Shown here piece by piece: positions 42,613 through 60,393 of a stretch of 64,000 bases of DNA. The stretch is from the sequence record MK373794.1, one strand, 5' to 3'. The stretch is from Escherichia phage vB_EcoS_HdK1. Position 1 is the first letter of the stretch; every line of letters begins with the position of its first letter. A program made the translations under genes and the position numbers. The notes under the pieces were generated by a model that was not told the origin of the DNA, did no database searches, and worked only from the letters and a program-made list of their open reading frames with translations.

Positions 42613-43438
42613 TTACTCTGCAGTTTTCTGAGACGGAATTTCTACGTTAGCGGCCGCTTGTGCAATATTAGCAGGTACTGGAACGGATACGCGACCAGTA
42701 ATGCCCATGTATTTCTTCCAGCGAGCGTATTCCGCTTTAACGTTGGCTTCGTTCAGGCCTTTGTCCAGTGCAACAGGCCAGAACGTAGCTGATCGGTGCA
42801 GTCTGCCCCAGCTCCAGGGTCACAGCGTCAAAGATATCCCATGCAGCACGGCACAGAGTACCAACACCAGGCTTGCGAATACCGTTCTGTTCAGGCTCTT
42901 TCTTAGCTTCGCGTTCTGCTGCTTTACGAGCACGCTCTTCGTCCTGCAGACGTTTCTTCTCAGCGCGTTGTGCGTCACGTTTCGCTTTTTCAGCGGCCTT
43001 AGTGGCTTCGCGGGCAGCGGATACACGACCTTTAACATCTTTCAGAGTGGATTCAATGGAGGAAACCAGATCTTCAGATGCTGCAACGGCAGTTTTCAGC
43101 TGATCGTTGTCTTTAACTTTACGTGCTGCCGCTTTAACAGCTTTCAGACCTTCTTTAGCGGTCTTCAGCTGAGCGGTAACTACGCCTTCAACTGCTTTAA
43201 CTTCGTCCAGCAATGAACCTTCGTTCAGGGTCGCGAACTGTTCTTTAACAGCGGACGTAGCACCTTCGATCACATTGTAACCGGCAGTGGCTTCGTTCAT
43301 TGCGGCGTCAACTTTAGCCTGCAATTCACGTGCTGCTTTTTCTTCAGCTTCACGTTTTTTCTTTGCTTCAGCTTCTTTTGCTGCTTTCTTTGCTGCTTCT
43401 TCTGCTTCCAGTTGTTCTGGAGTTTTCTCTTTAGCCAT
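42613..43438 (-). CDS. Lys/Ala/Glu-rich helical protein (frameshifted near 42790)
   Basis: N-terminal AEEAAKKAAKEAEAKKKREAEEKAAREL-type low complexity; C-terminal segment ending ...VEIPSQKTAE lies in another frame, ending at 42613 (ORF-track 42737..43438). Confidence 0.45.
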
Positions 43439-43534
43439 GATTTAAATCCTCACAGTGTGGTTATTGGTTGTGAACTACGTTCTAAGTGGTTGCACTATAA
43501 CCCCTCTAAAAGAACTATGCAATATTTTAGTTAA

Positions 43535-44107
43535 TTAATTTAAGCCACGTTCTTTTACCCAGACCCCTAATGTATTACTTGATGTATTACGCTTCACACC
43601 TTGTGCCTCTAAACGATCCATCATTTGTTTTCTAAGCTGAAGGATTTCCTTCTTGTCACGAGGTTCACCAGCTTCTTTCCACATTTCGTCAGCAACAGCG
43701 AAAATAATATCGCGAGTGCCGGCTGTACGCGACGTTGCGGCACGTTTTTCGTTTGCCGGTGTGCTAGTACCTTGCCGCTCTCTTGTCGGTGTCCATGCCC
43801 CTTGTATGCCCATATTTGTTTGTACGGTTGGGCCGTCAATGATGGCGGATTCCAATGAACTATCATTCCGTACTTGAATATTAGGCTCCTCCCCCAAATC
43901 TGGAACAGAGCTGCCTTCGCGGTACATGCACTCACCCTCTTTATTACTAGCAATTGCCCAGTCCGCTTGTTCAGCCACATCCGCATCTATTACTGTCTCC
44001 GGTATTTCATTTAAAAAGTAATGGATGATCTTACTGATCATTTTCTTTGGATATAAAGCACCTTGCTTATTACCCGTTAAGTTGATGTACAAAAGCTGCA
44101 TTTGCAC
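43535..44107 (-). CDS. hypothetical protein, C-terminal fragment of frameshifted gene 43535..44337
   Basis: Upstream same-frame continuation (SSFPLEVEELYKEFDDVQ...) joins the 44140..44337 ORF after a frame change. Confidence 0.45.
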   Translation of the reverse strand: MQMQLLYINLTGNKQGALYPKKMISKIIHYFLNEIPETVIDADVAEQADWAIASNKEGECMYREGSSVPDLGEEPNIQVRNDSSLESAIIDGPTVQTNMGIQGAWTPTRERQGTSTPANEKRAATSRTAGTRDIIFAVADEMWKEAGEPRDKKEILQLRKQMMDRLEAQGVKRNTSSNTLGVWVKERGLN

Positions 44108-44139
44108 ATCATCAAACTCTTTATACAGTTCTTCAACTT

Positions 44140-44337
44140 CTAACGGGAAAGAACTACAGAACTTTCGCTACAGCATAGAATTCCATACTCATGAAGACGT
44201 TGAAAGTTTGGATGTTTGGCTAATACCTGCATCCGATCGTAATCAATTAAGACGTACATATTAATCCTTCCACCATTCGGGCCCACAATACATTCCACGT
44301 AGTTCTTCACGCATGTAATTTTCAAACTCGTCTTCAA
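44140..44337 (-). CDS. hypothetical protein, N-terminal fragment of frameshifted gene 43535..44337
   Basis: MYVLIDYDRMQVLAKHPNFQRLHEYGILCCSE then stop; continuation in another frame. Confidence 0.4.
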   Translation of the reverse strand: MKTSLKITCVKNYVECIVGPNGGRINMYVLIDYDRMQVLAKHPNFQRLHEYGILCCSESSVVLSR

Positions 44338-44500
44338 TATTGATTACTTGACTTTCGTGAAAAACTGCTACACCATGAATAAATCGTTTAGCTCTTTCTC
44401 CTTTAATTACACCGTAACCTAACGCCTCCCACTCTTTAAAAGTCTTCCATTCACCATCTTCCGGTGAATAGTCGTCACTTCTAAACGTCATCTTTGCCAT
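44261..44500 (-). CDS. hypothetical small protein (79 aa)
   Basis: ATG at 44500 with GAGG RBS, just downstream of the helicase stop (ORF-track version extends to 44668). Confidence 0.45.
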   Translation of the reverse strand: MAKMTFRSDDYSPEDGEWKTFKEWEALGYGVIKGERAKRFIHGVAVFHESQVINIEDEFENYMREELRGMYCGPEWWKD

Positions 44501-44507
44501 ATAAGCC

Positions 44508-46511
44508 TCAAAACGGAATGTCGTCATCAAAGTCTGGTGGTAGTTCTTTACCGTTACCAGTAAGAATAGGTTGATTAGACGTAGAATGCAATACTGTCGT
44601 ACGGGAATCAGTCTGCTCATCTTCATCAAACTTATTCGTATAACTTCCACCAAACTGGGACAGACCATTCATTGCTGCAATTTGTACAACCGGACGTTCG
44701 TTTGTTGCTTCTTTCTTACCGAATTCACTACCATCATAGCAACTATTCAACACTTCGGGGAACTTACCCTTCAAGTTGACATATATGTGCGTCGGTACAC
44801 GAAGCTGGCTGACCACATTGAGTGCTTCGTCAATGTTAGCTGGGATTGCCAAGCTGCAATGCTCGCGCCACCAGTTACGCGCTTTCTTACCTGCAAAGCC
44901 GGTATGGAACAGGCAAATATATTGTTGAATAGTTTGTGAGCCACAAAGATAGTCCACGCGAAGTGTCGGTGGCTTAGAACGGTCACCCCTGTTCTCGTGG
45001 CGGTAGTAACTCACCATATCAACTTTCAATACCTCAGTGACTGGTAAATCATTCTTGATAATAGCTTTCGTACTAGCACTCGCCATTAGTTTCTTCTCAA
45101 AAGTAAACTCATGACCGCAATAACCAGCACGGCACGCTTTATTATTCGTAATGGTATAACCTAATCCTTGCAGATAGAGTATTTCTTCATGTGACATGCT
45201 ACTTGTGTCGAATGGTTTTAACCCACCACAGAAGCGAACTGACGCATGGTTCCATGTTTTACATATTGGGCATTCCTTAACAGGTGCAGCGGATTTTCCT
45301 TTCTGCCCTGGACGCTTAGGAATAACAGGGTCATTAATAGGCCCAAGGCGCCTTGTGTTACCTGCATAATCCAATACAAGACAGTTCTGTTTATGCGAAG
45401 CGGAGATAGCTTGCAAACGACCCTCTGTTGTGGTCAAATCAAAACCATCTGCATAATCAGGTCGTGTACCACGTCCAAGCATCTGAACCCACAAACGGGA
45501 AGATTGAGATGGTCGCATACCAATTATCAAGTCAAGTCCTGGATGGTCAAAGCCTGTCGTTAATACGTTGTTGTTTGCTATTGCCTGTAAACGACCAGCT
45601 TTAAAATCAATAAGATACTGGTCACGCAAGGCTTTCGGTGTATCACCAGTTACAACTTCACAACTAATACCGCGCTCGTTGAGGTAGTCCTTGACATCTT
45701 TTGCATGGTCTACACCAGCACAAAAGACAAGCCAACTCATTCTATTCTCTTCTTCCGCAATACTAATCGCATCATCTAATAAATGGCGAGTTACATCAGG
45801 ATCGTTTACAACCTTTTGAAGCTCACTTTCAATGAACTCACCGCCTCGAGTATGAACACCACTTACATCATACTCTTTCTTTGTTTTACGTGGTACTAAC
45901 GGAACAAGATAACCCTCATCAATGAACCAGTTGAAGCACTCTACGGTACATGCGTTAAATACGATTTCATCAAATAAAGCATTAGGCGCATAATCATCTT
46001 TGATAATAGAACCAAAACCAAGACGCCAACTCGTAGCAGTAAGACCGATAATCTTTAGATATGGATTCTTTTCACGAATGTGCGCAAAGAACTTCTGGTA
46101 ACTTGTTTGTTGATTTGGGCTAATAAGGTCACATTCGTCAACTATAATAATATCAACGTCCTCAAAGTATTTAGCTTGTTTTGCAACAGACTGAATACCC
46201 GCGAACGTTATCATTGCGTTCTTATCTTTGCGGCCCATACCAGCACTATAAATACCAGTCGGTGCTTCAGGCCACAACTTCTTAAATTTATCGTGGTTCT
46301 GGTCTATCAATTCTTTTACGTGAGTAATTACCATCATGCGGGTACTACCCCAATTATCGTGAATTGTCTTTAATAGACCAGCAATTACAAGGGACTTACC
46401 AGTCCCTGTAGGCAACAAGATAACAGGATTTCCTGACTTTTCACCATGCTTGATGAAATAGCGCAATGTACTGTTTACAGCTTCTTGCTGATAATCACGT
46501 AGTTTGAACAT
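44508..46511 (-). CDS. superfamily 2 DNA helicase (DExD-box) with zinc-finger and SSB-like acidic C-terminal tip
   Basis: Motif I LLPTGTGKS; motif II IIVDECD; motif VI QMLGRGTR; CPICKTW...FCGG zinc finger; C-terminus ...PPDFDDDIPF. Confidence 0.8.
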   Translation of the reverse strand: MFKLRDYQQEAVNSTLRYFIKHGEKSGNPVILLPTGTGKSLVIAGLLKTIHDNWGSTRMMVITHVKELIDQNHDKFKKLWPEAPTGIYSAGMGRKDKNAMITFAGIQSVAKQAKYFEDVDIIIVDECDLISPNQQTSYQKFFAHIREKNPYLKIIGLTATSWRLGFGSIIKDDYAPNALFDEIVFNACTVECFNWFIDEGYLVPLVPRKTKKEYDVSGVHTRGGEFIESELQKVVNDPDVTRHLLDDAISIAEEENRMSWLVFCAGVDHAKDVKDYLNERGISCEVVTGDTPKALRDQYLIDFKAGRLQAIANNNVLTTGFDHPGLDLIIGMRPSQSSRLWVQMLGRGTRPDYADGFDLTTTEGRLQAISASHKQNCLVLDYAGNTRRLGPINDPVIPKRPGQKGKSAAPVKECPICKTWNHASVRFCGGLKPFDTSSMSHEEILYLQGLGYTITNNKACRAGYCGHEFTFEKKLMASASTKAIIKNDLPVTEVLKVDMVSYYRHENRGDRSKPPTLRVDYLCGSQTIQQYICLFHTGFAGKKARNWWREHCSLAIPANIDEALNVVSQLRVPTHIYVNLKGKFPEVLNSCYDGSEFGKKEATNERPVVQIAAMNGLSQFGGSYTNKFDEDEQTDSRTTVLHSTSNQPILTGNGKELPPDFDDDIPF

Positions 46512-47462
46512 TTACTCACCGTAATAATCTGCTGCTTCGTATTGACCACATGCTGCCATTTGATCTTCCTTCGTTAACACACCTTCGGTTCCATCGGTGA
46601 TGTATGCAGTAGCAGAAGCTACTTTGATTGCGCATCTCCAGGTTCCATCTTCAAGCGGATAAGAGTGCTTACAGGTGCGGCAGTTAACTTCAGGCATTTT
46701 GTTGTTATGGCACACCGCTTTGTGGTCACACCATTTGCATTTATAGTAAGATTTACTTTCATTGATCTTAGGTGGTGGGCATTCCGCCAGTGCAATTACA
46801 AATCCACGGTCTTTGTAGCGTTCTGCTGTTTCTTTATCAAACGGTACAAGCTCTGCCCAAATCTCGTCCGTGTTCTTATTAACTGCAATATAAAGAGCGG
46901 CTGGGAGTCCATAATACAACATGTATTCCTGCATCTGAACATAGTGCTCCCATTTGGATTCCATCACACCATTAACGACAAGTTTCTTGAACGAATCGTT
47001 ATTGTGCGTTTTCATCTCCGTTAAGATTGGTGTAGAAGGTTGTGGCATGTCAGGACAACCAATGACAATACCATCTATCGCGGAACCAAAGTGCCCGTTG
47101 AGATAGCTGACTCTATACTGGCTGCCATTTTCGTCTTGTTGGATGACTTGCATACCGGCGGTAAGTAATAAGGCCACGAAGCGACCTTCTTCAAGATGCC
47201 CGCGATTGAATAGACGTAAGGTCTTACCGTTAAAGTGTGGTTTTGTTGCCCATCGCCATCCGTAGAAGATTGCTCTGCTACACTCCTGCCCGATAAGACT
47301 AATCCCAAGATGCGAACGGAATCCGCCATCCCCCTCTCGATATGCGTCTTCAATATGCGGTAATACTTTTCCGAGCCATACTCTGTAAGCGGATCCTTGA
47401 TCTCGTTCAATACAGTCATTGAATAACTCCATTGTCTTAGTAGCAGGATAAAAATGTGGCAT
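46512..47462 (-). CDS. RecB/Cas4-like PD-(D/E)xK exonuclease with C-terminal Cys cluster (putative)
   Basis: D...EMK nuclease-like motif (AIDGIV...ILTEMKTH); four-Cys cluster CKWCDHKAVCHNNKMPEVNCRTC. Confidence 0.45.
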   Translation of the reverse strand: MPHFYPATKTMELFNDCIERDQGSAYRVWLGKVLPHIEDAYREGDGGFRSHLGISLIGQECSRAIFYGWRWATKPHFNGKTLRLFNRGHLEEGRFVALLLTAGMQVIQQDENGSQYRVSYLNGHFGSAIDGIVIGCPDMPQPSTPILTEMKTHNNDSFKKLVVNGVMESKWEHYVQMQEYMLYYGLPAALYIAVNKNTDEIWAELVPFDKETAERYKDRGFVIALAECPPPKINESKSYYKCKWCDHKAVCHNNKMPEVNCRTCKHSYPLEDGTWRCAIKVASATAYITDGTEGVLTKEDQMAACGQYEAADYYGE

Positions 47463-47524
47463 ATCATAATCCTATATAGAAAAATAAAGCTCCCGGAGGA
47501 GCTTTATTATAACATGATTTTTAA

Positions 47525-48445
47525 TTACTGTGCAGCGTCATCGCCTTCGGTGGAACGTTTCCACGGTGGAGTCTTGGTCTGAGCTGCTTTAGCGATATCG
47601 TCCTGGACTTCAGGTTCTGCATGGTTAGCAGTACCAGTGTTCTGAGCTTGAGTTTGCGGTTGCTCCGCTCCAGGCTGTACCTGCTGAGTTGCCCAGTTAG
47701 GCTGCTGTGTGGCTTGTTGCTGCGGCTGCTGCGCACCAGTAGCCCACGGTTGAGATTGTGCCGCGCTGTTAAAATCAACTGTTCCAGACTGCTGCTGTTG
47801 CTGTACCGGCTGCTGCGGCTGTTGTTGCTGCTGCGGCTGCTGGAACCCCTGAGTCTGAGGTTGTTGCTGCTGTTGCTGCGGCTGCTGCCCAAATGCGCCC
47901 GGGAAACCCTGCTGCGGTTGCTGCTGTTGTTGCTGAGCACCACCGAACGCACCGCCACCAAATGCTGGGGATTGTGCTGCCGCTGCCGGAGTTGATTTAG
48001 GCAGGTTAGCCATATCCGCCTTAGTTGCGTATACAACACCTTCCATATTATCAATTGCTTGATAAATCTGAGGTTCGTTGTTTGGCTCATAGCCGGGTTG
48101 CTGACGAACTTTCACTTTCAGGTTAAACGGGATACCGTGCAGTTGTTCAGTATCGTTCCAGACTGGAACTTTAACAGCACGAGACAGCTCTGCCAGTTCT
48201 TCCATTGCAATCTGTACAGCGACAGGGTTCGCGTTCTTGACGTTGTAACCGCCAAACATTACACGACCAGCAAAATCACCCTGCATAATCTTAAACTGAA
48301 GATTCAGACGCGCACCGCCTGGAGTTTTAGTCGGTTTGATTTCAGAGTTTACAATCTGAACAACATACCAACCAGCGGGCATCAAGCTGTTGTGTTGACG
48401 CTCTGCGTGTTGTCCAGCGTTAAATTGCATTCCTAAACCGGCCAT
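47525..48445 (-). CDS. single-stranded DNA-binding protein-like, with Gln/Pro-rich low-complexity tail (putative)
   Basis: About 130-aa N-terminal domain followed by a Q/G/P-rich linker; next to the Sak4-like ATPase gene; lacks the canonical acidic tip. Confidence 0.35.
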   Translation of the reverse strand: MAGLGMQFNAGQHAERQHNSLMPAGWYVVQIVNSEIKPTKTPGGARLNLQFKIMQGDFAGRVMFGGYNVKNANPVAVQIAMEELAELSRAVKVPVWNDTEQLHGIPFNLKVKVRQQPGYEPNNEPQIYQAIDNMEGVVYATKADMANLPKSTPAAAAQSPAFGGGAFGGAQQQQQQPQQGFPGAFGQQPQQQQQQPQTQGFQQPQQQQQPQQPVQQQQQSGTVDFNSAAQSQPWATGAQQPQQQATQQPNWATQQVQPGAEQPQTQAQNTGTANHAEPEVQDDIAKAAQTKTPPWKRSTEGDDAAQ

Positions 48446-48466
48446 TATTGTACCCCTTTGATTTTG

Positions 48467-49195
48467 TTAATGATTGCACCGAGATGTGGATATTCCATCT
48501 GTTCTAACGAACGAACCAGAACGATCTTTACATACATTTGACAGATCTGGTCTTGTCAGCAGATAACGAAAATCTGCTTGAGTATTTTGGTCTTTACCAA
48601 CACTAATCTTGAACACTTCGTCAAAAAAGTATGGTAATTCTGGACCTAATTTTGCACCAGGCATAGAAGGACCATAAGACGTAATACCTGTTAACTCGTC
48701 CTTATTACGGGACATTTTAGCTGCCATGTATACGTTAAGTCCAGGGATATCTCGAAAAGCACGAACCAACGTTTGCATCTTCTCAATGAGATCCCCATAA
48801 GCCTGACGCGGATCCTTTACAGTACGCTTCGCATTGTTAAGGCACTTTTCAGCAATCTCAGTAAGTGAATCCAGCGCAAGAGATTGAAAGCGCGGTAAAC
48901 CATCTTCACCTACAGGATTGTTTGCAGGATTAGTTGCCCAAACATAAGCCTGCTCCACATCCTGGATATTTTCAACCGTGATGGTTGGAATATCGTAACA
49001 GATATCTGGTCTGTTTTCACCAAACACACGAGCAATGTTATTCGGTGTTAAAGACAGAAGCCCAGACTCTGCAGAAATCAGCAACGGTCTTGGAAGAGTT
49101 GCTGTAAGCATGGTCTTACCCATACCGGATTCACCATACACAAGCATCTTGACACCAGTGTCCAAAACTGCCTGCGCGGTAGTTGTAAATTGCAT
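48467..49195 (-). CDS. Sak4-like RecA-family ATPase (recombination)
   Basis: Walker A VYGESGMGKT near the N-terminus; size about 240 aa; adjacent to the SSB-like gene. Confidence 0.6.
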   Translation of the reverse strand: MQFTTTAQAVLDTGVKMLVYGESGMGKTMLTATLPRPLLISAESGLLSLTPNNIARVFGENRPDICYDIPTITVENIQDVEQAYVWATNPANNPVGEDGLPRFQSLALDSLTEIAEKCLNNAKRTVKDPRQAYGDLIEKMQTLVRAFRDIPGLNVYMAAKMSRNKDELTGITSYGPSMPGAKLGPELPYFFDEVFKISVGKDQNTQADFRYLLTRPDLSNVCKDRSGSFVRTDGISTSRCNH

Positions 49196-49259
49196 AAGTT
49201 GTTCCTTGTGTGGTTACGGTTGCAATACTAGGACCTAATTAACCTGAATGCAAACGTGA

Positions 49260-50204
49260 TTATTCACTAATATCTGTTGGATCACGGAAACTTTGATGCG
49301 TAGGAATACGCAATTTGTCTTTCATACCGTGAGCAAAGAATTTCCATTTAGAAATCTTCCCAATGAATTCATCAGGATGCTCAAAATAATATTTACGTTC
49401 TTCGTGCGTAAGACGACCAGCACCTACACGCATCTCTTGCCCGACTTCAATAAGATCTTCAAGGCCTTCTGGTACTGTAAGCACACGTACATCAAATGAG
49501 CCGACCATACCATTTGGAACCATATTAGCTTGATGGCTTGAACGATAAGTCTGCCCTAACTCATTAATCTGGGCTTCATTCCCATTGGTGCAACCTTCGA
49601 TAATACGAATGATCTCACCTTCACCATCAGTGAAACGCTTAATGCGGAGATAACCGCCTTCACGCTGCGTACTACGACCCCATTTATATTTCGCTTCAAG
49701 GTCACGAATAATAACACCTTCGTATCCCATATCGAGCCAAATATTTTCCCACTCCAAGAGTTCTTGTTCGTTGTTGACCACATACAGTGGCACAAGTTTC
49801 ACGTCCATTAACTCACCGTTAGCGTGGCATTCGTCCACGTACTTCTTGAGCATGTCATAACGCTCTTTGTACGGTAGATGTGCAACATTCGGTTCGCATA
49901 AATCGAACACATGCCACGTCCAAACGTATTCAGCTTCGATTTTAGATGTTGCACTACTTGTCTTGCGACATAAATCAAAGTCTGTTTCGTCCCCAACGGC
50001 AAGCTCACCGTCCATACCATCATAGATGGGAGATCCAAATACCTTTGCGACCTGCTTATTTGCAAAAGATTTAAGACTTCGTCCAACAAGCTCCCCAAAC
50101 GGTTTCATCCCACGAACGCCGTCAATTTTAGGCATGATACCTACAGGGTATTTCTGTTTAGCTGAATCCCAATCTGTTGCTAGATAAGGTTTAAATCGAG
50201 CCAT
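49260..50204 (-). CDS. ATP-dependent DNA ligase
   Basis: Adenylation motif MPKIDGVRG (KxDGxR); size 314 aa. Confidence 0.75.
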   Translation of the reverse strand: MARFKPYLATDWDSAKQKYPVGIMPKIDGVRGMKPFGELVGRSLKSFANKQVAKVFGSPIYDGMDGELAVGDETDFDLCRKTSSATSKIEAEYVWTWHVFDLCEPNVAHLPYKERYDMLKKYVDECHANGELMDVKLVPLYVVNNEQELLEWENIWLDMGYEGVIIRDLEAKYKWGRSTQREGGYLRIKRFTDGEGEIIRIIEGCTNGNEAQINELGQTYRSSHQANMVPNGMVGSFDVRVLTVPEGLEDLIEVGQEMRVGAGRLTHEERKYYFEHPDEFIGKISKWKFFAHGMKDKLRIPTHQSFRDPTDISE

Positions 50205-52419: not shown

Positions 52420-52445
52420 AAAAAATAGGGGTACACAAGTACCCC
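52420..52445 (-). terminator. Rho-independent terminator (minus strand)
   Basis: Perfect stem ggggtac / gtacccc with 4-nt loop; T-tract follows on the minus strand. Confidence 0.5.
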
Positions 52446-52587
52446 CGAAAGCGAAGCATATAATAGATAATAACATGTCAGCGAGAGGCAGCCTTCGAAA
52501 AGGGGTAATCTACCAACCACTCTCGCAAATAATGTTAACCTGTTTACGTGTTTGATTACAATACACGAATTCGTCAGAATTCACAGG

Positions 52588-52863
52588 TCATACCGTACAT
52601 TTTTGCCAATGGCCCATAGAAAATGACAGCGAAGTGCAGACAACTTCCAACCCGTCATCATCACGTACCACGGGCAAAGCTAGGCCGCTGCGGGCGTTAT
52701 GTACAGTGCGGTGTACTCTATACACAGAGTTATGCGTAAAGCGCCGCGTGTTCGCGTTTGTGCAGCGTAATAACGATCCGATATGCACAAGTGGAGCAGG
52801 CATAGTAAAACCAATCATTAGATCCTTCTCTTTCTTATTAGGCTGGCGTACAGTTACATTCAT
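52588..52863 (-). CDS. hypothetical protein (91 aa)
   Basis: GAGGGGA RBS; ATGA overlap with the upstream HTH gene. Confidence 0.45.
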   Translation of the reverse strand: MNVTVRQPNKKEKDLMIGFTMPAPLVHIGSLLRCTNANTRRFTHNSVYRVHRTVHNARSGLALPVVRDDDGLEVVCTSLSFSMGHWQKCTV

Positions 52864-53039
52864 TGTGTCGTCCCCTCATTTAAAGATTCCAGGCGCCCAC
52901 CTAACAAAATGAGCGATTTAATTTGATGCGGTTTCTTACCAAGATGTTCAGCAATGTGGTTATAAGTAAAACCTTTCTCCCGCATACGATAAGCAGTAAT
53001 GGCGGCATTGCGATTGCGGATATCGGTTTTCTTACTCAT
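52860..53039 (-). CDS. small helix-turn-helix DNA-binding protein (59 aa)
   Basis: FTYNHIAEHLGKKPHQIKSLI HTH-like segment; ATGA overlaps on both sides; below the ORF-track size cut-off. Confidence 0.4.
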   Translation of the reverse strand: MSKKTDIRNRNAAITAYRMREKGFTYNHIAEHLGKKPHQIKSLILLGGRLESLNEGTTQ

Positions 53040-53344
53040 GGTAAACTAGCTCCCCTTAATTTAGCTTCAATACGATTAATTAGCATCGACATACTACGAT
53101 CTGCAACCATATGATGCGGTTCGTAGTAACCATATGCCCAATAGTTTACCTCTTGCCCACAATGATTACAATTAATCTTTGACTCGCATACAGGCGAATA
53201 GTAGCCATCCACTTGATCTACGACAATCTCTGTAAACTCAGTGTGACCACACTTTGGGCATCGTATGCACTTCATTTTCTTGTCGTAGTTTGAGCGAAAA
53301 GTATAAGGCTTCCACCCTAACACCTTGTATATTTTGCTAGGCAT
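53036..53344 (-). CDS. zinc-finger protein (CxxC x2)
   Basis: CIRCPKCGH ... CNHCGQ motifs. Confidence 0.5.
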   Translation of the reverse strand: MPSKIYKVLGWKPYTFRSNYDKKMKCIRCPKCGHTEFTEIVVDQVDGYYSPVCESKINCNHCGQEVNYWAYGYYEPHHMVADRSMSMLINRIEAKLRGASLP

Positions 53345-53568
53345 TAGTGTAGATTCTCTTTAGGTTGTTCTTCGCTCGTCATAAGGTGAGCTAATACGCT
53401 ACATGTGTTTGATTTCTGCCAGGCTTTCTCAATTTCATCTAGCGAGGATTCTGGTTTACATAAGCGATAGGCTTCCATGAAGGAATTCTGGGCTGCTTCA
53501 ATGATTGCCAAAGACACCAACACTCTTTCGTCTATCATTGTCATCATTTCTTCACATTTATCACACAT
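53344..53568 (-). CDS. hypothetical protein (74 aa)
   Basis: Coupled to the downstream gene (start/stop overlap). Confidence 0.45.
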   Translation of the reverse strand: MCDKCEEMMTMIDERVLVSLAIIEAAQNSFMEAYRLCKPESSLDEIEKAWQKSNTCSVLAHLMTSEEQPKENLH

Positions 53569-53585
53569 ATTATTTCTCCAGTGTC

Positions 53586-53807
53586 CTAATCATCAATTAA
53601 TGTGATATCATCCACAAAAAATAAGCTATCGTTCTGGATACATTTACGTCGATTGATAATATCGTCGACATTGTAGTCCATCAAGGAAGGGTACTCGACC
53701 TCATCCTTCATACAAGGCCCATACACACTCAGACCCAACTCAGCCAAATGTTGCATGAATCCTTCAAGAGATTTTTTAGTATAAATTGTCGTTTTTAATT
53801 TACCCAT
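53586..53807 (-). CDS. hypothetical protein (73 aa)
   Basis: ATG at 53807 with AAGGAG RBS (ORF-track version extends to 53909). Confidence 0.45.
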   Translation of the reverse strand: MGKLKTTIYTKKSLEGFMQHLAELGLSVYGPCMKDEVEYPSLMDYNVDDIINRRKCIQNDSLFFVDDITLIDD

Positions 53808-53842
53808 CGCCCACTCCTTAAATCTTAATGGTAAACTGGAAG

Positions 53843-54040
53843 TTAAAAGAACGTACCAGTTAACACATACAGCACAGCGTCGCGCAGTGTTGGTAACAAA
53901 GGTGAACAATTAGGAACGCTGTAGAATTTACGTGATCCCACTTTAACACTCACTATTGTAATAGAACGTTTATTGCGCTCTACTGCGTAGAGACCACCAC
54001 CGAGACGACGGACTTTATATAGAGGTTGATGCTTTTGCAT
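53843..54040 (-). CDS. hypothetical small basic protein (65 aa)
   Basis: AAAGGAG RBS before ATG at 54040. Confidence 0.45.
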   Translation of the reverse strand: MQKHQPLYKVRRLGGGLYAVERNKRSITIVSVKVGSRKFYSVPNCSPLLPTLRDAVLYVLTGTFF

Positions 54041-54057
54041 GTTTTAACTCCTTTCTT

Positions 54058-54336
54058 TTATTTGCTGACACGTATGGCTCTACCTGTTAAGAAGGTGTAT
54101 CCACAGTGCCGCATTAAGTCACGTTCTTCTATTACACTTCGTAACTGGCGTGACAGCGTTTCATAGTAAGGACGGACTTCGTTCTTACTTATAGCTAAAG
54201 CATAGGCGAACAGTTGTTCCGAGTCAATACGATTAGACTTGATTCTTTTGATCGCCTGCTCAATTCCTGGGAACTCCTCATCCTGGTATAGAGCACCGTA
54301 CACAATTTTAATAGCTGCTAGATTGTAACTGGACAT
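54058..54336 (-). CDS. hypothetical protein (92 aa)
   Basis: ORF in the compact minus-strand array. Confidence 0.45.
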   Translation of the reverse strand: MSSYNLAAIKIVYGALYQDEEFPGIEQAIKRIKSNRIDSEQLFAYALAISKNEVRPYYETLSRQLRSVIEERDLMRHCGYTFLTGRAIRVSK

Positions 54337-54434
54337 TTGACCCTCGGACGTAAAATAATTCTTGATACCTATTGCATTCCTAAGGAAATGCTCTATAGTA
54401 TGTATTATACAGTTTGTAAGCGGAGGAACACAAA

Positions 54435-54665
54435 ATGACTCACCAAGATCTTATAAAAAGAAACATCAGAACTGCAATGAACAAGTCAGAGGAATTCTCA
54501 CATAACTGTACTGATGGTACTCATAAAATTAGATACGAATATATGGGATCCTCAACTGTGGTTAAGTTTGAGAAAGATGAGTATCACGTTGGAGATTTTT
54601 CAACACCAGATTACGACGAGATGTTTGAATACGTTGTATGTGGGTTCTTAAAATTGCACGAATAA
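54435..54665 (+). CDS. hypothetical protein (76 aa), lone plus-strand gene inside the minus-strand block
   Basis: GGAGGAA RBS; followed immediately by a strong terminator. Confidence 0.5.
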   Translation: MTHQDLIKRNIRTAMNKSEEFSHNCTDGTHKIRYEYMGSSTVVKFEKDEYHVGDFSTPDYDEMFEYVVCGFLKLHE

Positions 54666-54669
54666 TATA

Positions 54670-54696
54670 ATGGGCGCATATAGCGCCCATTTTTTA
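54670..54696. terminator. bidirectional Rho-independent terminator
   Basis: Stem atgggcgc / gcgcccat (54670..54677 and 54683..54690) followed by TTTTTT on the plus strand and T-rich sequence on the minus strand. Confidence 0.55.
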
Positions 54697-55746
54697 TAAC
54701 TTAATAACTTCGTTCATTCTCTCAATATCTACCAAATAACACTTCATTCTCGGTGGTGTAAACTCTGCGCCGAAGAAATTTGAAAAGTCCATTGGCCTCA
54801 TCTCGGTAAGAACTTCCATAGACATCAAACCATAGATTGTATTGTCTATGACCTGTAGGATGTTGTCATTTCTTGTCTGTTTAAAAGCCTTGAACTGGCG
54901 ACATACTGTGCATAGATCACTCCTTGTGACAATAAATGCGTCCTTAAACATGGGAAACCGTTTATATACACCAGCTTTAACTTCACCATCCAAGAACTTC
55001 TTAATGGAGTTCAGCATTATCTTCTCACGACTTGTACTGTCCGTAGAACCAATCTGCCCACTGTTACGCTTCTCTAAGAAACGCTCGTTACCCTGATCGA
55101 TAAATGACTCAGCCCAACGATAATGTTCCATAGTGACAACAGGACGCTCACTGTTATCTGCAACAGCAAGAAGAGAAGCTATACGCAATACCTTCAACGC
55201 CTTCCTTGTGTACATCTGACGAATTACTTCGTCTTGCACCTGCTCACCATCATTGCCGCTGTTCAGGAACTTCGCAACAATATTATCAAGATTATCAAAC
55301 GCTTCGTGTACCTCTGCTTCCATTTCAACATAACACGGAGCAGTCCCTGACATAATACGCACAGCTTGTTTATAGATAGCTCCAATAGTGCGCAGTATTG
55401 CTTCTGGATATTCCAGGAGCATACTCTTATTCATCAATGGGCGGTTAGCTGTACATTCCCATGCGATAATACGGGACATGAAACCACTCGACATCATGCG
55501 GTCATCTACGTTCCCGTAAAATTCATCTGGTGTTGTTTCACCTGCAAAACTATACGCCTTAACCTTACCGCCAGCAGTCGTATTATCTTTACTAGAGTGC
55601 TTTGAACCACCAGAGAAAGCATAGAAATGCCCCTTGTCATAAAGGGAAAGCATTTCATCCATAATGTCTTTAGCTTTACCGACTTCCATCTTACCGTTAC
55701 GGAAAAAATGCACCGACTTCAGTCTTATAGTTAATGGATGAGCCAC
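54694..55746 (-). CDS. primase-polymerase / helicase-like replication protein, C-terminal fragment (multiply frameshifted gene spanning 54694..57260)
   Basis: 350-aa ORF continuous in sequence with upstream fragments; frame break next to an 8-A homopolymer at about 55881..55888. Confidence 0.45.
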   Translation of the reverse strand: MAHPLTIRLKSVHFFRNGKMEVGKAKDIMDEMLSLYDKGHFYAFSGGSKHSSKDNTTAGGKVKAYSFAGETTPDEFYGNVDDRMMSSGFMSRIIAWECTANRPLMNKSMLLEYPEAILRTIGAIYKQAVRIMSGTAPCYVEMEAEVHEAFDNLDNIVAKFLNSGNDGEQVQDEVIRQMYTRKALKVLRIASLLAVADNSERPVVTMEHYRWAESFIDQGNERFLEKRNSGQIGSTDSTSREKIMLNSIKKFLDGEVKAGVYKRFPMFKDAFIVTRSDLCTVCRQFKAFKQTRNDNILQVIDNTIYGLMSMEVLTEMRPMDFSNFFGAEFTPPRMKCYLVDIERMNEVIKL

Positions 55747-55767
55747 AAGACATAACGGACGTATCCA

Positions 55768-56352
55768 TTATGACATCCTTGCGCAATGCAGCATCAGACG
55801 CATAGGTACTTGTATCCAAGACACGTTCGATACCAAATATCTGCTGACCGTCTTGACCGCCATAATTGGATACTTGAGAAAAAAAAGAATAGTTTCAATG
55901 TTGGAGCGAAACGCTTCTTTACCAATACCAGAACGTGCAATTAGTACAAAGTAGTTATTCAAACCACTTCGTGTGACTGTGTTCCACGCCTTACCGCACA
56001 TACCACTAAATAAAGCAAGCGCAGACAGAATACTAATGTCTTTAATAGGCAACAAGCTCGCTTTATACATATTACGCGCAACCTCGCCCATAAAGCCCGG
56101 AGGCCAAGCCAAACCGTCTGCCTGCTCTTCAGTGTAATTACCATCTGTAGTCAACACTTCTTCAGGTGGGCGTTCTGGTGTAGTTGCTTGACGTAGTTTT
56201 TCCGTGCGCTCTATAGCTGCATTAACGTTATTCTGAACTATCTGCATAAGTCCCATAGATTTAACATGGGCATCGTAGCGATAGTTGCGAATCATTCTAT
56301 CCAGGTGGTACGGACGTTTAATTTTTTCACCAGGCATACGACGGGGAATCAT
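55768..56352 (-). CDS. primase-polymerase / helicase-like protein, central fragment
   Basis: Segment ...NYFVLIARSGIGKEAF then out-of-frame tail; overlaps the upstream fragment in another frame. Confidence 0.4.
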   Translation of the reverse strand: MIPRRMPGEKIKRPYHLDRMIRNYRYDAHVKSMGLMQIVQNNVNAAIERTEKLRQATTPERPPEEVLTTDGNYTEEQADGLAWPPGFMGEVARNMYKASLLPIKDISILSALALFSGMCGKAWNTVTRSGLNNYFVLIARSGIGKEAFRSNIETILFFLKYPIMAVKTVSRYLVSNVSWIQVPMRLMLHCARMS

Positions 56353-56474
56353 CGTAACGGCTACTCATTGGTGAATACATGAATAGACGTCTTACCTGGA
56401 AATTGTACTTACTCTTAAAGCAAAGAAAGTCAATTAATGCAAATTCTGCTTCAGACTGAGAAGGGAAACAACGT

Positions 56475-56855
56475 TCACCGATTAGAAGTATCAACTTCTT
56501 CAGCTCTCCAACGACCCTCCCATAGCTGCTTAAACAATGTTCCGTTTTCTTGTTCGCACAACTGAATATAGACATCCTGGTCTTCCATTGCATATGGGTC
56601 GTTACTAAAATCTTCTTCAGTAAGTTCCAGCATTTGGAAGCCATCAGACTCATTAATCTCACTCATCTCAGACATAAGTTGGATGAATGAGATTAGCGAT
56701 ATACCCTTCGCTTTCACTGCCTGGAGCACCAGACACAGTGCGCGGGAGTAAAGTAACATCCCAGTGATCCCCTGTACAGATAATAAAACGATACTGGGAA
56801 TACACTTCCACACCGTCACGGCGCTTACCAGCCTGAGGGGATGGAATAAATCCAT
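56475..56855 (-). CDS. primase-polymerase-like protein, internal fragments (at least 3 frames used between 56327 and 56871)
   Basis: Protein-like segments alternate between frames, e.g. TEISRSGDGLHTWIYSIPSGW then AGKRRDGVEVYSQYRFII then SEMSEINESDGFQMLELTEEDF. Confidence 0.35.
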   Translation of the reverse strand: MDLFHPLRLVSAVTVWKCIPSIVLLSVQGITGMLLYSRALCLVLQAVKAKGISLISFIQLMSEMSEINESDGFQMLELTEEDFSNDPYAMEDQDVYIQLCEQENGTLFKQLWEGRWRAEEVDTSNR

Positions 56856-56894
56856 GTGTGCAACCCATCACCGCTTCTGGAAATTTCCGTATAG

Positions 56895-57260
56895 CTATGG
56901 AAACGATTCAACAATCTTCTTATATCGCTCACCAGCAACTTTCTTTTCCATTTCAGACATGGTATCTTTAATGTCCATGTCGATACAACAGAACGGGTCA
57001 CTTGGAAGTAGATAGAAACCTAAACGCAAGTTATGACCAATCTCGTTATAATAACGAACGCAGCGTTCAGCATCTTCAAAAGACATAAGTAAATGCAGGT
57101 TAGACGGTTTCTTATCATTACCGTCTTTACGAAGTGGGACCATATCCCCTAAATCATCGTCCCATACATAAGGTTGTTTTTCTGATGATGTACCCGGATG
57201 GAAACCGCAGACAGCCCACTGTTCGTATTGTTTAATTTCTTGAGGAAAAAGTTCCAGCAT
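56895..57260 (-). CDS. primase-polymerase (AEP superfamily) N-terminal fragment
   Basis: Prim-pol-like pattern EQWAVCGF...KKP...LMSFEDAER...GHNLRLGFYLLPSDPFCCIDMDIKD (DxD motif); downstream SGDGLHTW motif in a shifted frame. Confidence 0.5.
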   Translation of the reverse strand: MLELFPQEIKQYEQWAVCGFHPGTSSEKQPYVWDDDLGDMVPLRKDGNDKKPSNLHLLMSFEDAERCVRYYNEIGHNLRLGFYLLPSDPFCCIDMDIKDTMSEMEKKVAGERYKKIVESFP

Positions 57261-57269
57261 GTTATTACC

Positions 57270-57506
57270 TTAAAACGTAGCGGGATTAATTTCAAATAAC
57301 GAACGTGATGGTACAACATCAAAGTTGACATCTACCAGCTTAAAAGAATTCGTGTAAACACACCATGTACCGACTTTTTCATTAAAGACGGGCTTGTCAT
57401 TATTAAATGCGTACACGCAACCATCAGAATCTGTTGCAATATATCTTGTGTCTTTTGGTACTTCTACATCTGAACCATAATAGTGAACGATAATTAAATC
57501 TGACAT
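57270..57506 (-). CDS. hypothetical protein (78 aa)
   Basis: AGGAGA RBS before ATG at 57506. Confidence 0.5.
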   Translation of the reverse strand: MSDLIIVHYYGSDVEVPKDTRYIATDSDGCVYAFNNDKPVFNEKVGTWCVYTNSFKLVDVNFDVVPSRSLFEINPATF

Positions 57507-57556
57507 GTTATTCTCCTACGATCCATTAGGACACACATAGTATATACTGATGGATC

Positions 57557-57576
57557 GCAGGGGGCTAACCCCCTGC
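57557..57576. other. perfect GC-rich hairpin (8-bp stem gcaggggg / ccccctgc, loop ctaa) in an intergenic gap
   Basis: Read directly; no adjacent U-tract on either strand, so it may be an RNA processing or regulatory structure rather than a terminator. Confidence 0.4.
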
Positions 57577-57579
57577 AAA

Positions 57580-57978
57580 TTATGGTACTAAGACCCAACG
57601 ACAGGTGATAGGTTTACACGTTACTTGTTCTTTAGAGATAGTAATTCTGTCCCTGAACATTATTCTCGGATAAAAGTATTGCATGTAATTATCCGAATCC
57701 GTTTTACATTGTGCATTCAATATGCGGGAGCTAACAATAAACTTTAAATCCGCCCAATCCTCCATAGAATCAGAAAAAGATAGGATACGCCCATTTCCAC
57801 GAACTTTAGCCGTTGACTCAGCTGGTAGTCTGTGGTTAATATCACACGGTAAATCTAAAGCAGGTAGCTTCCCTTTGATTAATTTATCGGTATTAAAAGA
57901 GCCAATTTCTAAAGTATGAATATTCTGACCTTTAATTGGTTCTTCAAACTTAACATCAACAACAAGTTTGACTAGCAT
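57580..57978 (-). CDS. hypothetical protein (132 aa)
   Basis: ORF in the early-gene array. Confidence 0.45.
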   Translation of the reverse strand: MLVKLVVDVKFEEPIKGQNIHTLEIGSFNTDKLIKGKLPALDLPCDINHRLPAESTAKVRGNGRILSFSDSMEDWADLKFIVSSRILNAQCKTDSDNYMQYFYPRIMFRDRITISKEQVTCKPITCRWVLVP

Positions 57979-57992
57979 AGCTTACCCTATAA

Positions 57993-58262
57993 TCACCATA
58001 AAATTTCTACACTTTCAGTATCCAGCTGACTTAATGGTTGCTTATATGAGATTGTATATCCAAATGATACCAGTTGTTCAGTTACCTTTCTCATTACAGG
58101 ACGTGCATTAGGACTACCGATTTCACTATATGGCTTTTTAAATAATTTAATATGATCCCTGCCATCTAGAGATGCTTTAGTAATCCATTTATCCAAATCA
58201 TCAAGATATGCACTGGTATCCAGACTTTCACTATTTGTACGGGCTTCTTGTGCTGTAATCAC
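57993..58262 (-). CDS. hypothetical protein (89 aa)
   Basis: ORF in the early-gene array. Confidence 0.45.
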   Translation of the reverse strand: MITAQEARTNSESLDTSAYLDDLDKWITKASLDGRDHIKLFKKPYSEIGSPNARPVMRKVTEQLVSFGYTISYKQPLSQLDTESVEILW

Positions 58263-58264
58263 GA

Positions 58265-58573
58265 TTATTGCTCCATAGCTTGTTTCATCAATGCGTCATA
58301 GATACGTTTCGTGCTAGACGCGTTCCACAGTTGTTCGTCTGTCTGAACTTCCTGGTTCCATTGCTTGTCCAATAAACCTTCTTCATACGCATCTTTAATA
58401 CGCTTGCACAAAGTAAGGATGTCTGTTTGAAGAATATCAATTTCTTCTTGAGTTAACGGAGCATTCTTAAATGGCTCTTTAACTACTGCAATAATTGCTT
58501 CATAAATGCTGTATGCAATGCCGCCGCAACAATGTGCCTCCCGCGCAATAGCTTCACCAATGTCGTCTGTCAT
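58265..58573 (-). CDS. hypothetical protein (102 aa)
   Basis: ORF in the early-gene array; tightly packed with neighbours. Confidence 0.45.
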   Translation of the reverse strand: MTDDIGEAIAREAHCCGGIAYSIYEAIIAVVKEPFKNAPLTQEEIDILQTDILTLCKRIKDAYEEGLLDKQWNQEVQTDEQLWNASSTKRIYDALMKQAMEQ

Positions 58574-58605
58574 TTCACGCGGGATAATAACAGGATCTGC
58601 AAGGA

Positions 58606-58815
58606 TTAGATAGAGCGAAGAGCCTGCAACTCTTTCTCCAATTGGTCGATTCGCATATCACGATGTCCCAACTCCGCAGCAATAGCACTTTTACTATGCA
58701 GTTGTTCGGACGTCATTGCCATAACGTGACGAGAATAAAAACCACCAGCTTTATCTAATTCAAAAGCGTCACGCTCTTGATATAAACGCACACATTCTTT
58801 ACTCATCTTTGCCAC
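58606..58815 (-). CDS. hypothetical protein (69 aa)
   Basis: ORF in the early-gene array. Confidence 0.4.
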   Translation of the reverse strand: MAKMSKECVRLYQERDAFELDKAGGFYSRHVMAMTSEQLHSKSAIAAELGHRDMRIDQLEKELQALRSI

Positions 58816-59158
58816 CTTCTTTATTCAGTTGACTACATGCTGGAGTCCATTGTCCGTTCAATGTCCGCTTAAGATCATCTTTGCGCATACGTTCGAACCA
58901 TTCAGTGTGGTCATGAGGATTGTCGCTTACTTTATAGTCAATATTAACACACGTTTCTTTGAAATCCATACCTTCCAGGTCCACGTTATAACAGATATCT
59001 ATTTCAATACCTGGCTCAGTTAATACCCAAAAACCATCGCCATCGATACATTCGCACCACTGAGGCTCATTCTCGAACGCAGTTAAAGTACCGTCCTCGT
59101 CGACCGCAAGGTATTTCGCCCACACTGGAACAAACAACACTTCACCGAAGTATCGCAC
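58799..59158 (-). CDS. hypothetical protein (119 aa)
   Basis: ORF in the early-gene array. Confidence 0.45.
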   Translation of the reverse strand: MRYFGEVLFVPVWAKYLAVDEDGTLTAFENEPQWCECIDGDGFWVLTEPGIEIDICYNVDLEGMDFKETCVNIDYKVSDNPHDHTEWFERMRKDDLKRTLNGQWTPACSQLNKEGGKDE

Positions 59159-59175
59159 AGCCTTCTGGAGTAAGA

Positions 59176-59505
59176 TTAATTTGCATGTTCACCTCGAAGC
59201 AGACGCTCGAGCTTCGATTTATTTTTGATAAGCTGATATTGCCGATCCACCACAAGCGCCTTCTGACGGTTACGCATAAGGTATTCGAACGCACTTTGAA
59301 AATCTTCGACTTTACCTTCATAACCTAAAGCCTTGGCGACGTGCGACACGCGATGGAACAGAAAGTCCGCAAAGTCCATAATTTCCATCGCATTGACAAT
59401 AGCGTCAAGTAAATCAGGATTTATATTCGGGTCCACCTTTTTAGCTTGTTCAAGAAGTCGCACCTTTGCTTTATATAAAGGTGAATTGCTTACTGTTTGC
59501 ATCAC
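59176..59505 (-). CDS. hypothetical protein (109 aa)
   Basis: ORF in the early-gene array. Confidence 0.45.
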   Translation of the reverse strand: MMQTVSNSPLYKAKVRLLEQAKKVDPNINPDLLDAIVNAMEIMDFADFLFHRVSHVAKALGYEGKVEDFQSAFEYLMRNRQKALVVDRQYQLIKNKSKLERLLRGEHAN

Positions 59506-59771
59506 TTCCTCCAGATATCACGCGATTCTTTAATACGGATGTTATACCGTATAAGTTGCTGCATAACTTTATGCAGGTCATCGAGATGCTTCCTTAAACG
59601 AAGACGTTTCTTGATAGCCCACAAGTTCTTCATATCCGTTCGTTGGAGATCCTCCCTTAAATACAATGAAAAGTCAGTCTGGTGATCTAAGATAAATTGG
59701 ATACGCATCAAAGTATCCGACTTACGATAATCAGGATACCACTTAGGAAGCACATCTTGTTCGCCAATCAT
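59502..59771 (-). CDS. hypothetical protein (90 aa)
   Basis: ATG at 59771 with GGAG RBS; corresponds to the C-terminal third of ORF-track 59502..60278, which appears chimeric. Confidence 0.45.
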   Translation of the reverse strand: MIGEQDVLPKWYPDYRKSDTLMRIQFILDHQTDFSLYLREDLQRTDMKNLWAIKKRLRLRKHLDDLHKVMQQLIRYNIRIKESRDIWRK

Positions 59772-59772
59772 C

Positions 59773-60393
59773 TTACGCTCCAAACTGATCAATGTATTCA
59801 ATGAGCTCTTGCAATTCTTGCTGTAACTGCACATTACCACTATTATTCGTCTGAAGTCTAACGAGGCGTTCCTTGATATGTGCAATGTGGTTAGTGCCCA
59901 TCCGACGCTTCTGTACATCACACCAGCGAACAACACCATCTTCAATATATGCACGACGGGCTTTACCACGCGGGTATCGCAGCGGCGCCGAATTTCACAC
60001 TTATCGCCCACCCACTTAAAGCCCAGGATCATAACAGCGTTACCTTCCGTATCAGGACACACGTCAAAACAACTGTTGAACCCTTTACTGCGCATATACT
60101 CGTCGAGCGGAATCACCTTATCAGGCGACAACCATTGATACCCGAAGTAAATATCGACAGTGAACACCGTACCCAACATCGGAGCCGACCAGCACATATA
60201 CATCCGCCCGTCATCCAACTTCTTGACCGCATTCGGCCCGCAACACGAGGCCAGCCGCCTTCCACGCTTTGACCACATTAATCGTGTTGTCCTGCTCCTG
60301 AAAGATTGCGTCTGCCTGCATATATGTAGGCGCGTCCCAGCCCGAACATTTCCTTTACATGAGCATTAGTGATTTTAACCTTTTGATTGCGCA
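59773..60393 (-). CDS. hypothetical early protein, frameshifted (at least 2 frame changes)
   Basis: ATG at 60393 (MRNQKVKITNAHVKEMFGLGRAYIYAGR...) stops after 38 codons; protein-like sequence continues in two other frames down to a stop at 59773. Confidence 0.4.

Follow-up and report, generated by a model that had tools for sequence, protein, structure and literature searches.

Frame breaks in the replication block of Escherichia phage vB_EcoS_HdK1 are almost certainly consensus insertion errors, probably caused by DNA modification

The frame breaks in the replication-block range (42613–60393) of Escherichia phage vB_EcoS_HdK1 are almost certainly insertion errors in the consensus sequence and not split genes or pseudogenes. 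The insertions are private, essential genes are affected, removal of the extra bases restores the ORFs, and a GAA context is found in one orientation only, which together points to an assembly artefact. DNA modification is probably its cause: we put the probability that these errors result from reading native DNA modified with deoxyarchaeosine (dG+) at about 65%.

All positions refer to the window, i.e. the whole stretch of 64,000 nucleotides that was analysed, which consists of one 60,692-bp Nonagvirus genome and a 3.3-kb terminal repeat. Its nucleotide identity to HdSG1, JenK1 and 9g is 94–97% (over 94–98% of 19 kb), with concordant gene-by-gene tblastn results. Based on this similarity, the phage is a 9g-like coliphage of the genus Nonagvirus within the subfamily Queuovirinae. 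The best relative is 96–97% identical and no near-identical truth set exists among the relatives compared. For this reason, three relatives, locally as many as nineteen, serve as the reference for calling an indel 'private', the basic requirement being absence from JenK1, HdSG1 and 9g.

The window contains 30 private insertions versus 5 private deletions. The same test yields 34 private small indels for the window, 1 for JenK1, 11 for 9g and 19 for HdSG1. Single-base insertions lengthen an existing base in 19 of 21 cases, and insertions of several bases take the form of stutters or duplications; homopolymer tracts at the insertion sites are mostly 2–4 nt long. At least 17 genes are broken, including those for the major capsid, tape measure and tail fibre proteins, the primase and DpdA. 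On the plus strand, the major head protein gene (13013..14119) carries a +2 (13521–13525), a +1 (14097–14099) and an in-frame +3 (13850–13857). It is followed by gp07 and the head-tail adaptor gp09 (14687..16207; gp07 +1 at 14845–14847 and +1 at 15133–15136, gp09 +1 at 15813–15815), by gp15 and the tape measure (19159..22761; gp15 +2 at 19408, tape measure +1 at 20281–20284 and +1 at 21443–21444) and by the tail fibre gp22 and gp23 (27885..31840; gp22 +1 at 28196–28198, gp23 +1 at 31613–31616). When the private indels are deleted, every gene returns to a single full-length ORF, nearly all of them 92–100% identical to JenK1 (99.4% for the tape measure).

Such lesions might be real mutations in a defective or decaying phage with pseudogenes, as the extra bases are present in the sequence as given and a metagenomic or prophage-remnant origin is conceivable. 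We consider this very improbable. The hits fall in at least 17 genes, and a virion could not be viable if its capsid, tape measure, tail fibre and primase genes were broken; the terminal-repeat layout of the window, on the other hand, is that of packaged virion DNA. Private substitutions, mostly transitions, are not in excess over JenK1 (518 vs 497), so they were uninformative about substitution-type errors. Nonsense mutations are absent and identity after repair is mostly 98–100%. Moreover, the changes are nearly exclusively insertions in one context, unlike mutational decay.

Within the replication-block range, the preliminary description had named four frame-broken loci, and all of them are indeed broken compared to the intact orthologues of JenK1, HdSG1 and 9g. 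It placed the breaks at ORF boundaries; the breaks are real, but the true lesions are insertions slightly offset from those boundaries. The broken genes described below for this range lie on the minus strand. The Lys/Glu/Ala-rich gp37 homologue (42613..43438) measures 826 nt versus 825 nt in the relatives, with ATG and TAA present where expected. It is found in two frames by tblastn and becomes a single ORF with 98.9% identity to JenK1 gp37 after repair. Its lesion is a +1 C (C to CC) at 42778..42779, CAACAGG[C]CAGAAC, private versus JenK1, HdSG1 and 9g, with GAAC 2 nt downstream and GGC at the insertion site. The gp38 homologue has a +2 'GA' at 44147..44148, CTAACGG[GA]AAGAAC (GGAAG to GGGAAAG), making it 725 nt instead of 723 nt (99.6% identity after repair). 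This gene had been given as 43535..44337, but actually spans 43535..44259: 44140..44337 is an out-of-frame ORF that arises mechanically, and a small gene of its own, also found in HdSG1 and SE1, occupies 44261..44500.

The early gene previously taken to end at 60393 is the gp66 homologue, 59773..60394. A five-way alignment identifies it as the HdSG1_00087 allele (618 nt) with 4 extra bases, giving 622 nt. These bases are a +2 'GC' at 59985..59988 (GCG[GC]GCCGAAT), a +1 C at 60237..60239 (TTCGG[C]CCGCAAC) and a +1 G at 60340..60340 (CCCA[G]CCCGAAC). The repaired product is 82.5% identical to JenK1, the N-terminal allele being different. Alleles alternate between JenK1-like and HdSG1-like along the window, with gp66 as an example, and Nonagviruses are mosaic. 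This raises the idea of a chimera of two co-assembled close phages, with indels at the switch points. However, the extra bases occur in no relative, so neither parent could have supplied them, the sequence is continuous on both flanks of each insertion, and a GAA-specific context is not expected of template switching. A chimeric origin is therefore hardly credible.

Two further breaks, absent from the preliminary description, are located in the same range. A Sak4-like (AAA_24) gene (48445..49195, 751 nt vs 747 nt) contains a +4 'AACG' tandem duplication in AACGAACGAAC at 48506..48516, private versus the relatives, which throws about 45 C-terminal residues out of frame; identity is 100% after repair. 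In the gp63 homologue (58799..59186), a +1 G at 59167..59168, CTTCT[G]GAGTAAG, leaves the initial ~6 codons out of frame.

The most heavily affected gene is that of the primase/helicase (54694..57260, minus strand), called primase-polymerase in the preliminary description, with a putative AEP-like domain at the N-terminus and a putative D5/DUF3987-type helicase domain at the C-terminus. The intact JenK1 orthologue gives 29.7 bits for DUF3987 (cut-off 27) and 24.1 bits for AEP-TOTE, below its cut-off of 27. The gene is 2567 nt long, compared with 2550 nt in relatives; the 17 extra nt come from eight insertions located from 55703 to 56903, which split it into 9 true-coding segments. From low to high coordinates, the insertions are a +1 A (A5 to A6) at 55703..55708, CGG[A]AAAAAT; a +5 A (A3 to A8) at 55879..55886, GAG[AAAAA]AAAGAAT; a +1 G (G3 to G4) at 56343..56346, GAC[G]GGGAATC; a +1 T at 56482..56483, CCGA[T]TAGAAG; a +1 G at 56681..56682, GTT[G]GATGAAT; a +6 'GAGTAA' stutter at 56746..56751, CGG[GAGTAA]AGTAAC; a +1 G at 56837..56840, TGA[G]GGGATGGAAT; and a +1 A at 56901..56903, TGG[A]AACGATTC. 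The breaks reported earlier for 55746–56900 are thus present, but the 8-A run beside one of them is itself the error. Scanning IMG/VR for the exact pattern of the 8-A region gave no match, nor did look-ups of the exact products of two proteins specific to the window. After repair, the protein has 849 aa and is 99.8% identical to JenK1 gp58.

As suspected beforehand, the breaks are not uniformly distributed: with eight insertions in 1.2 kb, the primase gene reaches P≤2e-4 also after weighting for the supply of motifs. Motif density was rejected as the source of this hot spot, since GA and GAAY are evenly represented from one 2-kb stretch to the next. The DNA polymerase, helicase, large terminase and portal genes, said to be intact, are so by tblastn against the relatives.

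Genuinely split genes whose fragments are expressed separately, or programmed frameshifting with recoding, would find some support in Salmonella phage SE1 (RefSeq NC_042025). In this phage, the primase is annotated as three 'DNA primase' CDSs, with junctions matching two of the window breaks. Related genomes sharing the same split had been named as the observation that would speak against an error. This is not what is seen: the primase is one uninterrupted ORF in nineteen other relatives (11 GenBank genomes and 8 IMG/VR loci), and SE1, the only relative with a split primase gene, shares 2 of the 8 sites. In the window, coding segments between the breaks measure 63–459 nt, some being as short as 63–85 nt (21–28 codons), which means that they cannot be separately expressed genes. 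No requirement for start codons or ribosome-binding sites, and no conservation of them, was found. In programmed frameshifting, such as the −1 event of the tail assembly chaperone, one protein is likewise made from neighbouring ORFs that differ in frame; real cases, however, possess a slippery site and recur in related phages. The window breaks show neither feature and are insertions versus every relative. As eight breaks lie within 1.2 kb and SE1 has other essential genes broken, real splitting is barely conceivable.

SE1 is more informative as an independent Nonagvirus assembly with similar defects. Exactly two of the eight primase sites (55703..55708 and 56746..56751) also carry a +1 in SE1; other insertions in its sequence lie in TTC/GAA contexts, and its tape measure and tail genes are split. 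SE1 differs from the window in having two primase breaks instead of eight and in its relatively commoner deletions. A literature search by the SE1 accession number did not reveal how it was sequenced.

The preliminary description had proposed systematic error and a comparison of indel positions with homopolymers and G-containing motifs. This comparison is positive: with GAA scored within 8 nt 3' of the insertion on either strand, 22 of 30 insertions have the motif on their 3' side after strand symmetrisation (expected 6.1, P=6e-10). These 22 insertions lie 0–5 nt 5' of the motif, which is mostly part of GAAC or GAAT; these two are also the top 4-mers, significant with Bonferroni correction. 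Near the 30 insertions, neither the mirror controls TTC and GCC nor the unrelated GTT and CAA are enriched, and enrichment of GGC is weak (P about 0.05). Errors occur at only about 1–3% of the GAA/GAAY sites, so their positions are not set by the motif alone.

Errors could also stem from a general tendency of platform or polisher to fail in certain contexts or homopolymers, independent of 7-deazaguanine. The lengthening of an existing run in 19 of the 21 single-base insertions is in line with such a bias, as are the small share of GA/GAA sites affected and the regional clustering, which fit uneven depth or polishing. Nevertheless, it seems the less likely explanation. The errors do not fall mainly in long homopolymers, as most tracts measure 2–4 nt, and the 30:5 insertion excess with 5–6-nt stutters is unusual for plain homopolymer error. 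The GAA association exists in one orientation only, with flat mirror controls, and GAA includes GA, the sequence modified in related phages (PMC7544227, PMC10484667). In addition, SE1 errs independently at the same two primase sites. It should be noted that a GAA-specific basecaller bias without modification would look identical. Flow-based (454 or Ion Torrent) homopolymer error was considered and is unlikely, since the tracts are short and the changes include an A3 to A8 expansion and duplications of 6 nt and 4 nt.

Reading errors on modified DNA agree with the gene content. The phage encodes what is, by orthology, a complete dG+ pathway: DpdA, FolE, QueD, QueE and Gat-QueC all have orthologues at 97–100%. 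The DpdA (DNA guanine transglycosylase) gene (37339..38293, minus strand) has a +1 at 37500–37501 and is 99.7% identical after repair; carrying this insertion, it gives no Pfam match. FolE, QueD, Gat-QueC, gp35 and QueE follow at 38366..42544 (minus strand), with an in-frame +3 in QueD at 39516 and a +1 in gp35 at 41696. According to tblastn, these proteins are 98–100% identical to JenK1, except gp35 with 93%, and Pfam detects GATase_7 and QueC fused in one 504-aa protein. DNA of phage 9g contains 25–27% dG+, and the DpdA motif is GA and GGC in CAjan and GA in iggy (PMC7544227, PMC10484667). G in GA makes up 26.5% of all G in the present genome. Given this coincidence with 25–27% and the GA motifs of CAjan and iggy, dG+ may be placed at GA in this phage.

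The following mechanism is proposed. A bulky 7-deazaguanine replaces about a quarter of genomic G in this phage group. If native, unamplified DNA was read on a single-molecule platform, the signal would be abnormal at the modified G and 1–3 bases 5' of it. Nanopore is the likeliest platform judging from the stutters (A3 to A8, a 6-nt duplication and paired G/A over-calls). Basecaller and polisher would then over-call length, leaving 1–6 extra bases just 5' of GA(A) or GGC, and any such insertion in a coding region would appear as a frameshift. Both the platform and the causal role of the modification are probable readings of the error pattern.

For CAjan and iggy, a disturbed nanopore signal is described that covers the modified G and the two bases upstream of it (PMC7544227, PMC10484667). 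These phages are, like the present one, Queuovirinae with DpdA-based chemistry (PMC7544227, PMC10484667). Their modified G in GA perturbs the signal at the G itself and ~2 bases 5' of it, and the window insertions lie 0–5 nt 5' of GA(A). In those studies, the perturbation was used deliberately against an Illumina reference, and consensus frameshifts were not reported (PMC7544227, PMC10484667). The modified base in those studies is preQ0, whereas dG+ is presumed here, with an apparently narrower preferred context (GAAY). Nanopore assemblies also show systematic consensus errors linked to modification and homopolymers, which Homopolish addresses (PMC8011154) and which are mentioned for native phage DNA (PMC13473507). 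Like these, the window indels occur in a single assembly, withstand polishing, break ORFs and can be corrected with homologues. Classic nanopore cases, in contrast, concern Dam/Dcm motifs and long homopolymers and are usually deletion-biased, compared to insertions at short runs beside GAA in the window.

As biology, the frame breaks have no significance; none of these genes is split. The record needs correction before 'primase fragments' are annotated or pseudogenes inferred. Native long-read assemblies of 7-deazaguanine-modified phages can contain insertions tied to a motif, which may leave a quarter of the larger genes broken, and in at least one RefSeq Nonagvirus record, SE1, this signature recurs at identical sites. 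The Nonagvirus dG+ motif was described as unknown in 2023 (PMC10484667), and error positions may hint indirectly at the modification motif of the genus. More tentatively, the 30 insertion sites might be a dG+ footprint, with DpdA targeting GA, preferentially GAAY and perhaps GGC, and with the primase hot spot reflecting a local property of the DNA. If so, this would be the first sequence-level hint that the Nonagvirus DpdA targets GA, and the hot spot, part of which recurs in the independent SE1 record, would mark unusually dense or complete modification, or another local DNA property, and not an accident of coverage.

All 86 JenK1 proteins were compared with the window by tblastn, and the homologues of the primase (gp58), gp37, gp38 and gp66 are each spread across two to four frames. 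Both in JenK1 and in HdSG1, these are intact single genes of 2550, 825, 723 and 621 or 618 nt, respectively. Nucleotide alignments place a +1 lesion at 42778 in the gp37 homologue, the Lys/Glu-rich protein already described as broken, and a +2 lesion at 44147 in the gp38 homologue. Eight insertions between 55703 and 56903 account for the several breaks reported in the primase (+1 at 55703, +5 at 55879, +1 at 56343, +1 at 56482, +1 at 56681, +6 at 56746, +1 at 56837 and +1 at 56901), and the gp66 homologue carries three (+2 at 59985, +1 at 60237 and +1 at 60340). Two breaks had been overlooked in the preliminary description, i.e. a +4 AACG duplication at 48506 in Sak4 and a +1 at 59168 in gp63. 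ATG and TAA codons are found at the exact positions predicted by the relatives' gene length plus the inserted bases. The gene given as 43535..44337 is indeed broken, but its true extent is 43535..44259; likewise, the early gene given as 59773..60393 truly ends at 60394. The 8-A homopolymer in the primase was correctly located, but the run is itself the error, being AAA in the relatives. The DNA polymerase, helicase, large terminase and portal, described as intact, are so in the tblastn comparison.

These frame breaks are not a biological feature, and the probability that they are an artefact overall is put at about 0.93. Insertions of this kind also disrupt the genes for the major capsid protein, tape measure, tail fibre, head-tail adaptor and DpdA, the DNA guanine transglycosylase. 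No phage with such damage could be viable. Removing the private indels (those absent from JenK1, HdSG1 and 9g) yields one full-length ORF for every broken gene. Nearly all repaired genes are 92-100% identical to JenK1, with 99.8% for the primase, 100% for Sak4 and 99.4% for the tape measure, while gp66 reaches 82.5% and differs in its N-terminal allele. In the DpdA gene (37339..38293), an insertion at 37500-37501 apparently shifts the last ~55 codons out of frame; after repair, this enzyme, the one that would introduce the DNA modification, shows 99.7% identity to JenK1 gp31. The true-coding primase stretches between breaks measure 63, 85, 64, 198, 138, 459 and 175 nt, so short that separately expressed fragments are ruled out. 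The primase is whole in 11 distinct GenBank relatives, in which a 1701-nt query covers 1683-1684 nt (SE1, with 1686 nt, being the sole GenBank exception), and an uninterrupted 849-aa primase occurs in eight IMG/VR loci, several of them metagenomic. That the breaks reflect real mutations, programmed frameshifting or a chimeric assembly is in each case very improbable, given their private occurrence, the lack of decay, the damage to essential genes and the context specificity.

Window positions 1..3308 are identical to 60693..64000, and the content is one 60,692-bp genome plus this repeat. HdSG1 position 4 aligns with window position 1, and the last base of the 3,363-bp direct terminal repeat in the HdSG1 record aligns with window 3367. 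From these comparisons, the underlying genome is probably linear, ~64.06 kb long with a direct terminal repeat, its ending truncated at position 64,000. In the replication block, the window shares 94-97% identity with Nonagvirus phages (HdSG1, JenK1, JenP1/2, 9g, SE1 and others), and the deoxyarchaeosine (dG+) pathway is encoded in full (DpdA, FolE, QueD, QueE and a GATase-QueC fusion). Mosaic differences from JenK1, ordinary in kind, lie at ~50187, ~51219, 44261..44500, 58461..58800 and 3536..4015. The window lacks two JenK1 genes, the HNH endonuclease gp44 (530 bp) and gp47, it shares an extra 228-bp gene with HdSG1 and SE1, and near 58.5 kb it is longer by 243 and 83 bases. Region 3536..4015 is a 159-aa ORF, 39% identical to the JenK1 HNH, in the place expected for gp75.

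Against all three references, 34 small indels are private to the window. Five of them are deletions and 29 are insertions, the latter becoming 30 once the AACG duplication at 48506, whose alignment varied among relatives, is included. The same test gives 1 for JenK1, 11 for 9g and 19 for HdSG1, the last mostly compensating pairs inside divergent patches. Private substitutions (518, versus 497 in JenK1) are transition-dominated and unremarkable, and the anomaly is confined to surplus insertions. The five private 1-nt deletions (20, 191, 3458, 6027 and 6701) all lie within the first 7 kb, those at 20 and 191 inside the terminal repeat, and that at 6701 disrupts the Rz-like spanin gene (gp83 homologue). 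Since private-substitution density peaks in this same region, some may be genuine intergenic differences.

The insertions were mapped against sequence context, as had been proposed for detecting systematic error. Nearly all single-base insertions (19/21) extend a base already there, and larger ones are stutters (CTC to CTCTC, GGAAG to GGGAAAG, A3 to A8, and duplications of GAGTAA and AACG). With flanks read strand-symmetrically (plus strand rightward of the insertion, reverse complement leftward), GAA lies at most 8 nt away in 22 of the 30 events versus 6.1 expected (P=6e-10), ranking first among 64 trinucleotides (Bonferroni 1e-6); GAAT and GAAC lead the tetranucleotides. GGC enrichment is weak, and the same flank test gives no enrichment for the mirror motifs TTC and GCC or the unrelated GTT and CAA. 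Therefore, insertions fall 0-5 nt to the 5' side of GAA(Y), read along the strand that bears the motif. The motif faces the site from both strands in seven events (0.7 expected).

In Queuovirinae, DpdA replaces G by a 7-deazaguanine, the target motifs being GA and GGC in CAjan and GA in iggy (PMC7544227, PMC10484667), and in nanopore data a modified G perturbs two upstream bases too (PMC7544227). For 9g, dG+ makes up 25-27% of G, and its motif has been called unknown (PMC10484667). Over both strands of 1..60692, G followed by A represents 26.5% of all G, matching this published content, and GGC 3.9%. Modifications reportedly impair the length and accuracy of native-DNA nanopore phage assemblies (PMC13473507), and systematic errors tied to modification have been recognised before (PMC8011154). 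The insertions, by where they lie, how they are oriented and their stutter-like form, fit a presumed nanopore reading disturbed by modification, from which we infer a link between the two. DNA modification is thus the favoured, fairly probable driver of the artefact; a generic sequence-context bias, as another source of motif-associated errors, seems rather unlikely.

The breaks are non-uniformly distributed, as first noticed. Eight insertions fall inside 1.2 kb of the primase, a cluster reached in none of 5000 simulations under uniform placement and in 0.02% of 5000 with sites drawn from GAAY (GAAC/GAAT) positions; in 2-kb bins, the variance/mean is 1.77 (P=0.007). Motif density was rejected as the cause, GA and GAAY densities being flat along the genome. 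Three independent Nonagvirus records (the window, SE1 and 9g) have an indel hot spot in the primase, with 9g having its own 1-nt deletion at codon 40 and, at the 3' end, a paired insertion and deletion.

The Salmonella phage SE1 record (NC_042025) annotates three primase CDSs in the locus 13520..16071. Its +1 insertions coincide with two of the eight window primase sites, the A-run at 55703 and the junction of CGG and AGTAAC at 56746; others lie in TTC/GAA contexts and split the tape measure and major tail genes. Independent assemblies being wrong at identical positions, a systematic cause is favoured over a conserved gene structure. The SE1 tape measure is in two parts (1404 + 1809 nt), as is the major tail protein (270 + 945 nt), and the distal tail protein and central fibre are shortened. 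These genes look like uncorrected sequencing errors carried into the RefSeq annotation.

The remaining interest is technical, namely a motif-linked insertion signature in the assembly of a dG+ phage. At least one RefSeq record of the genus, SE1, bears the same kind of error, and the insertion sites may hint indirectly at the motif of the Nonagvirus DpdA.
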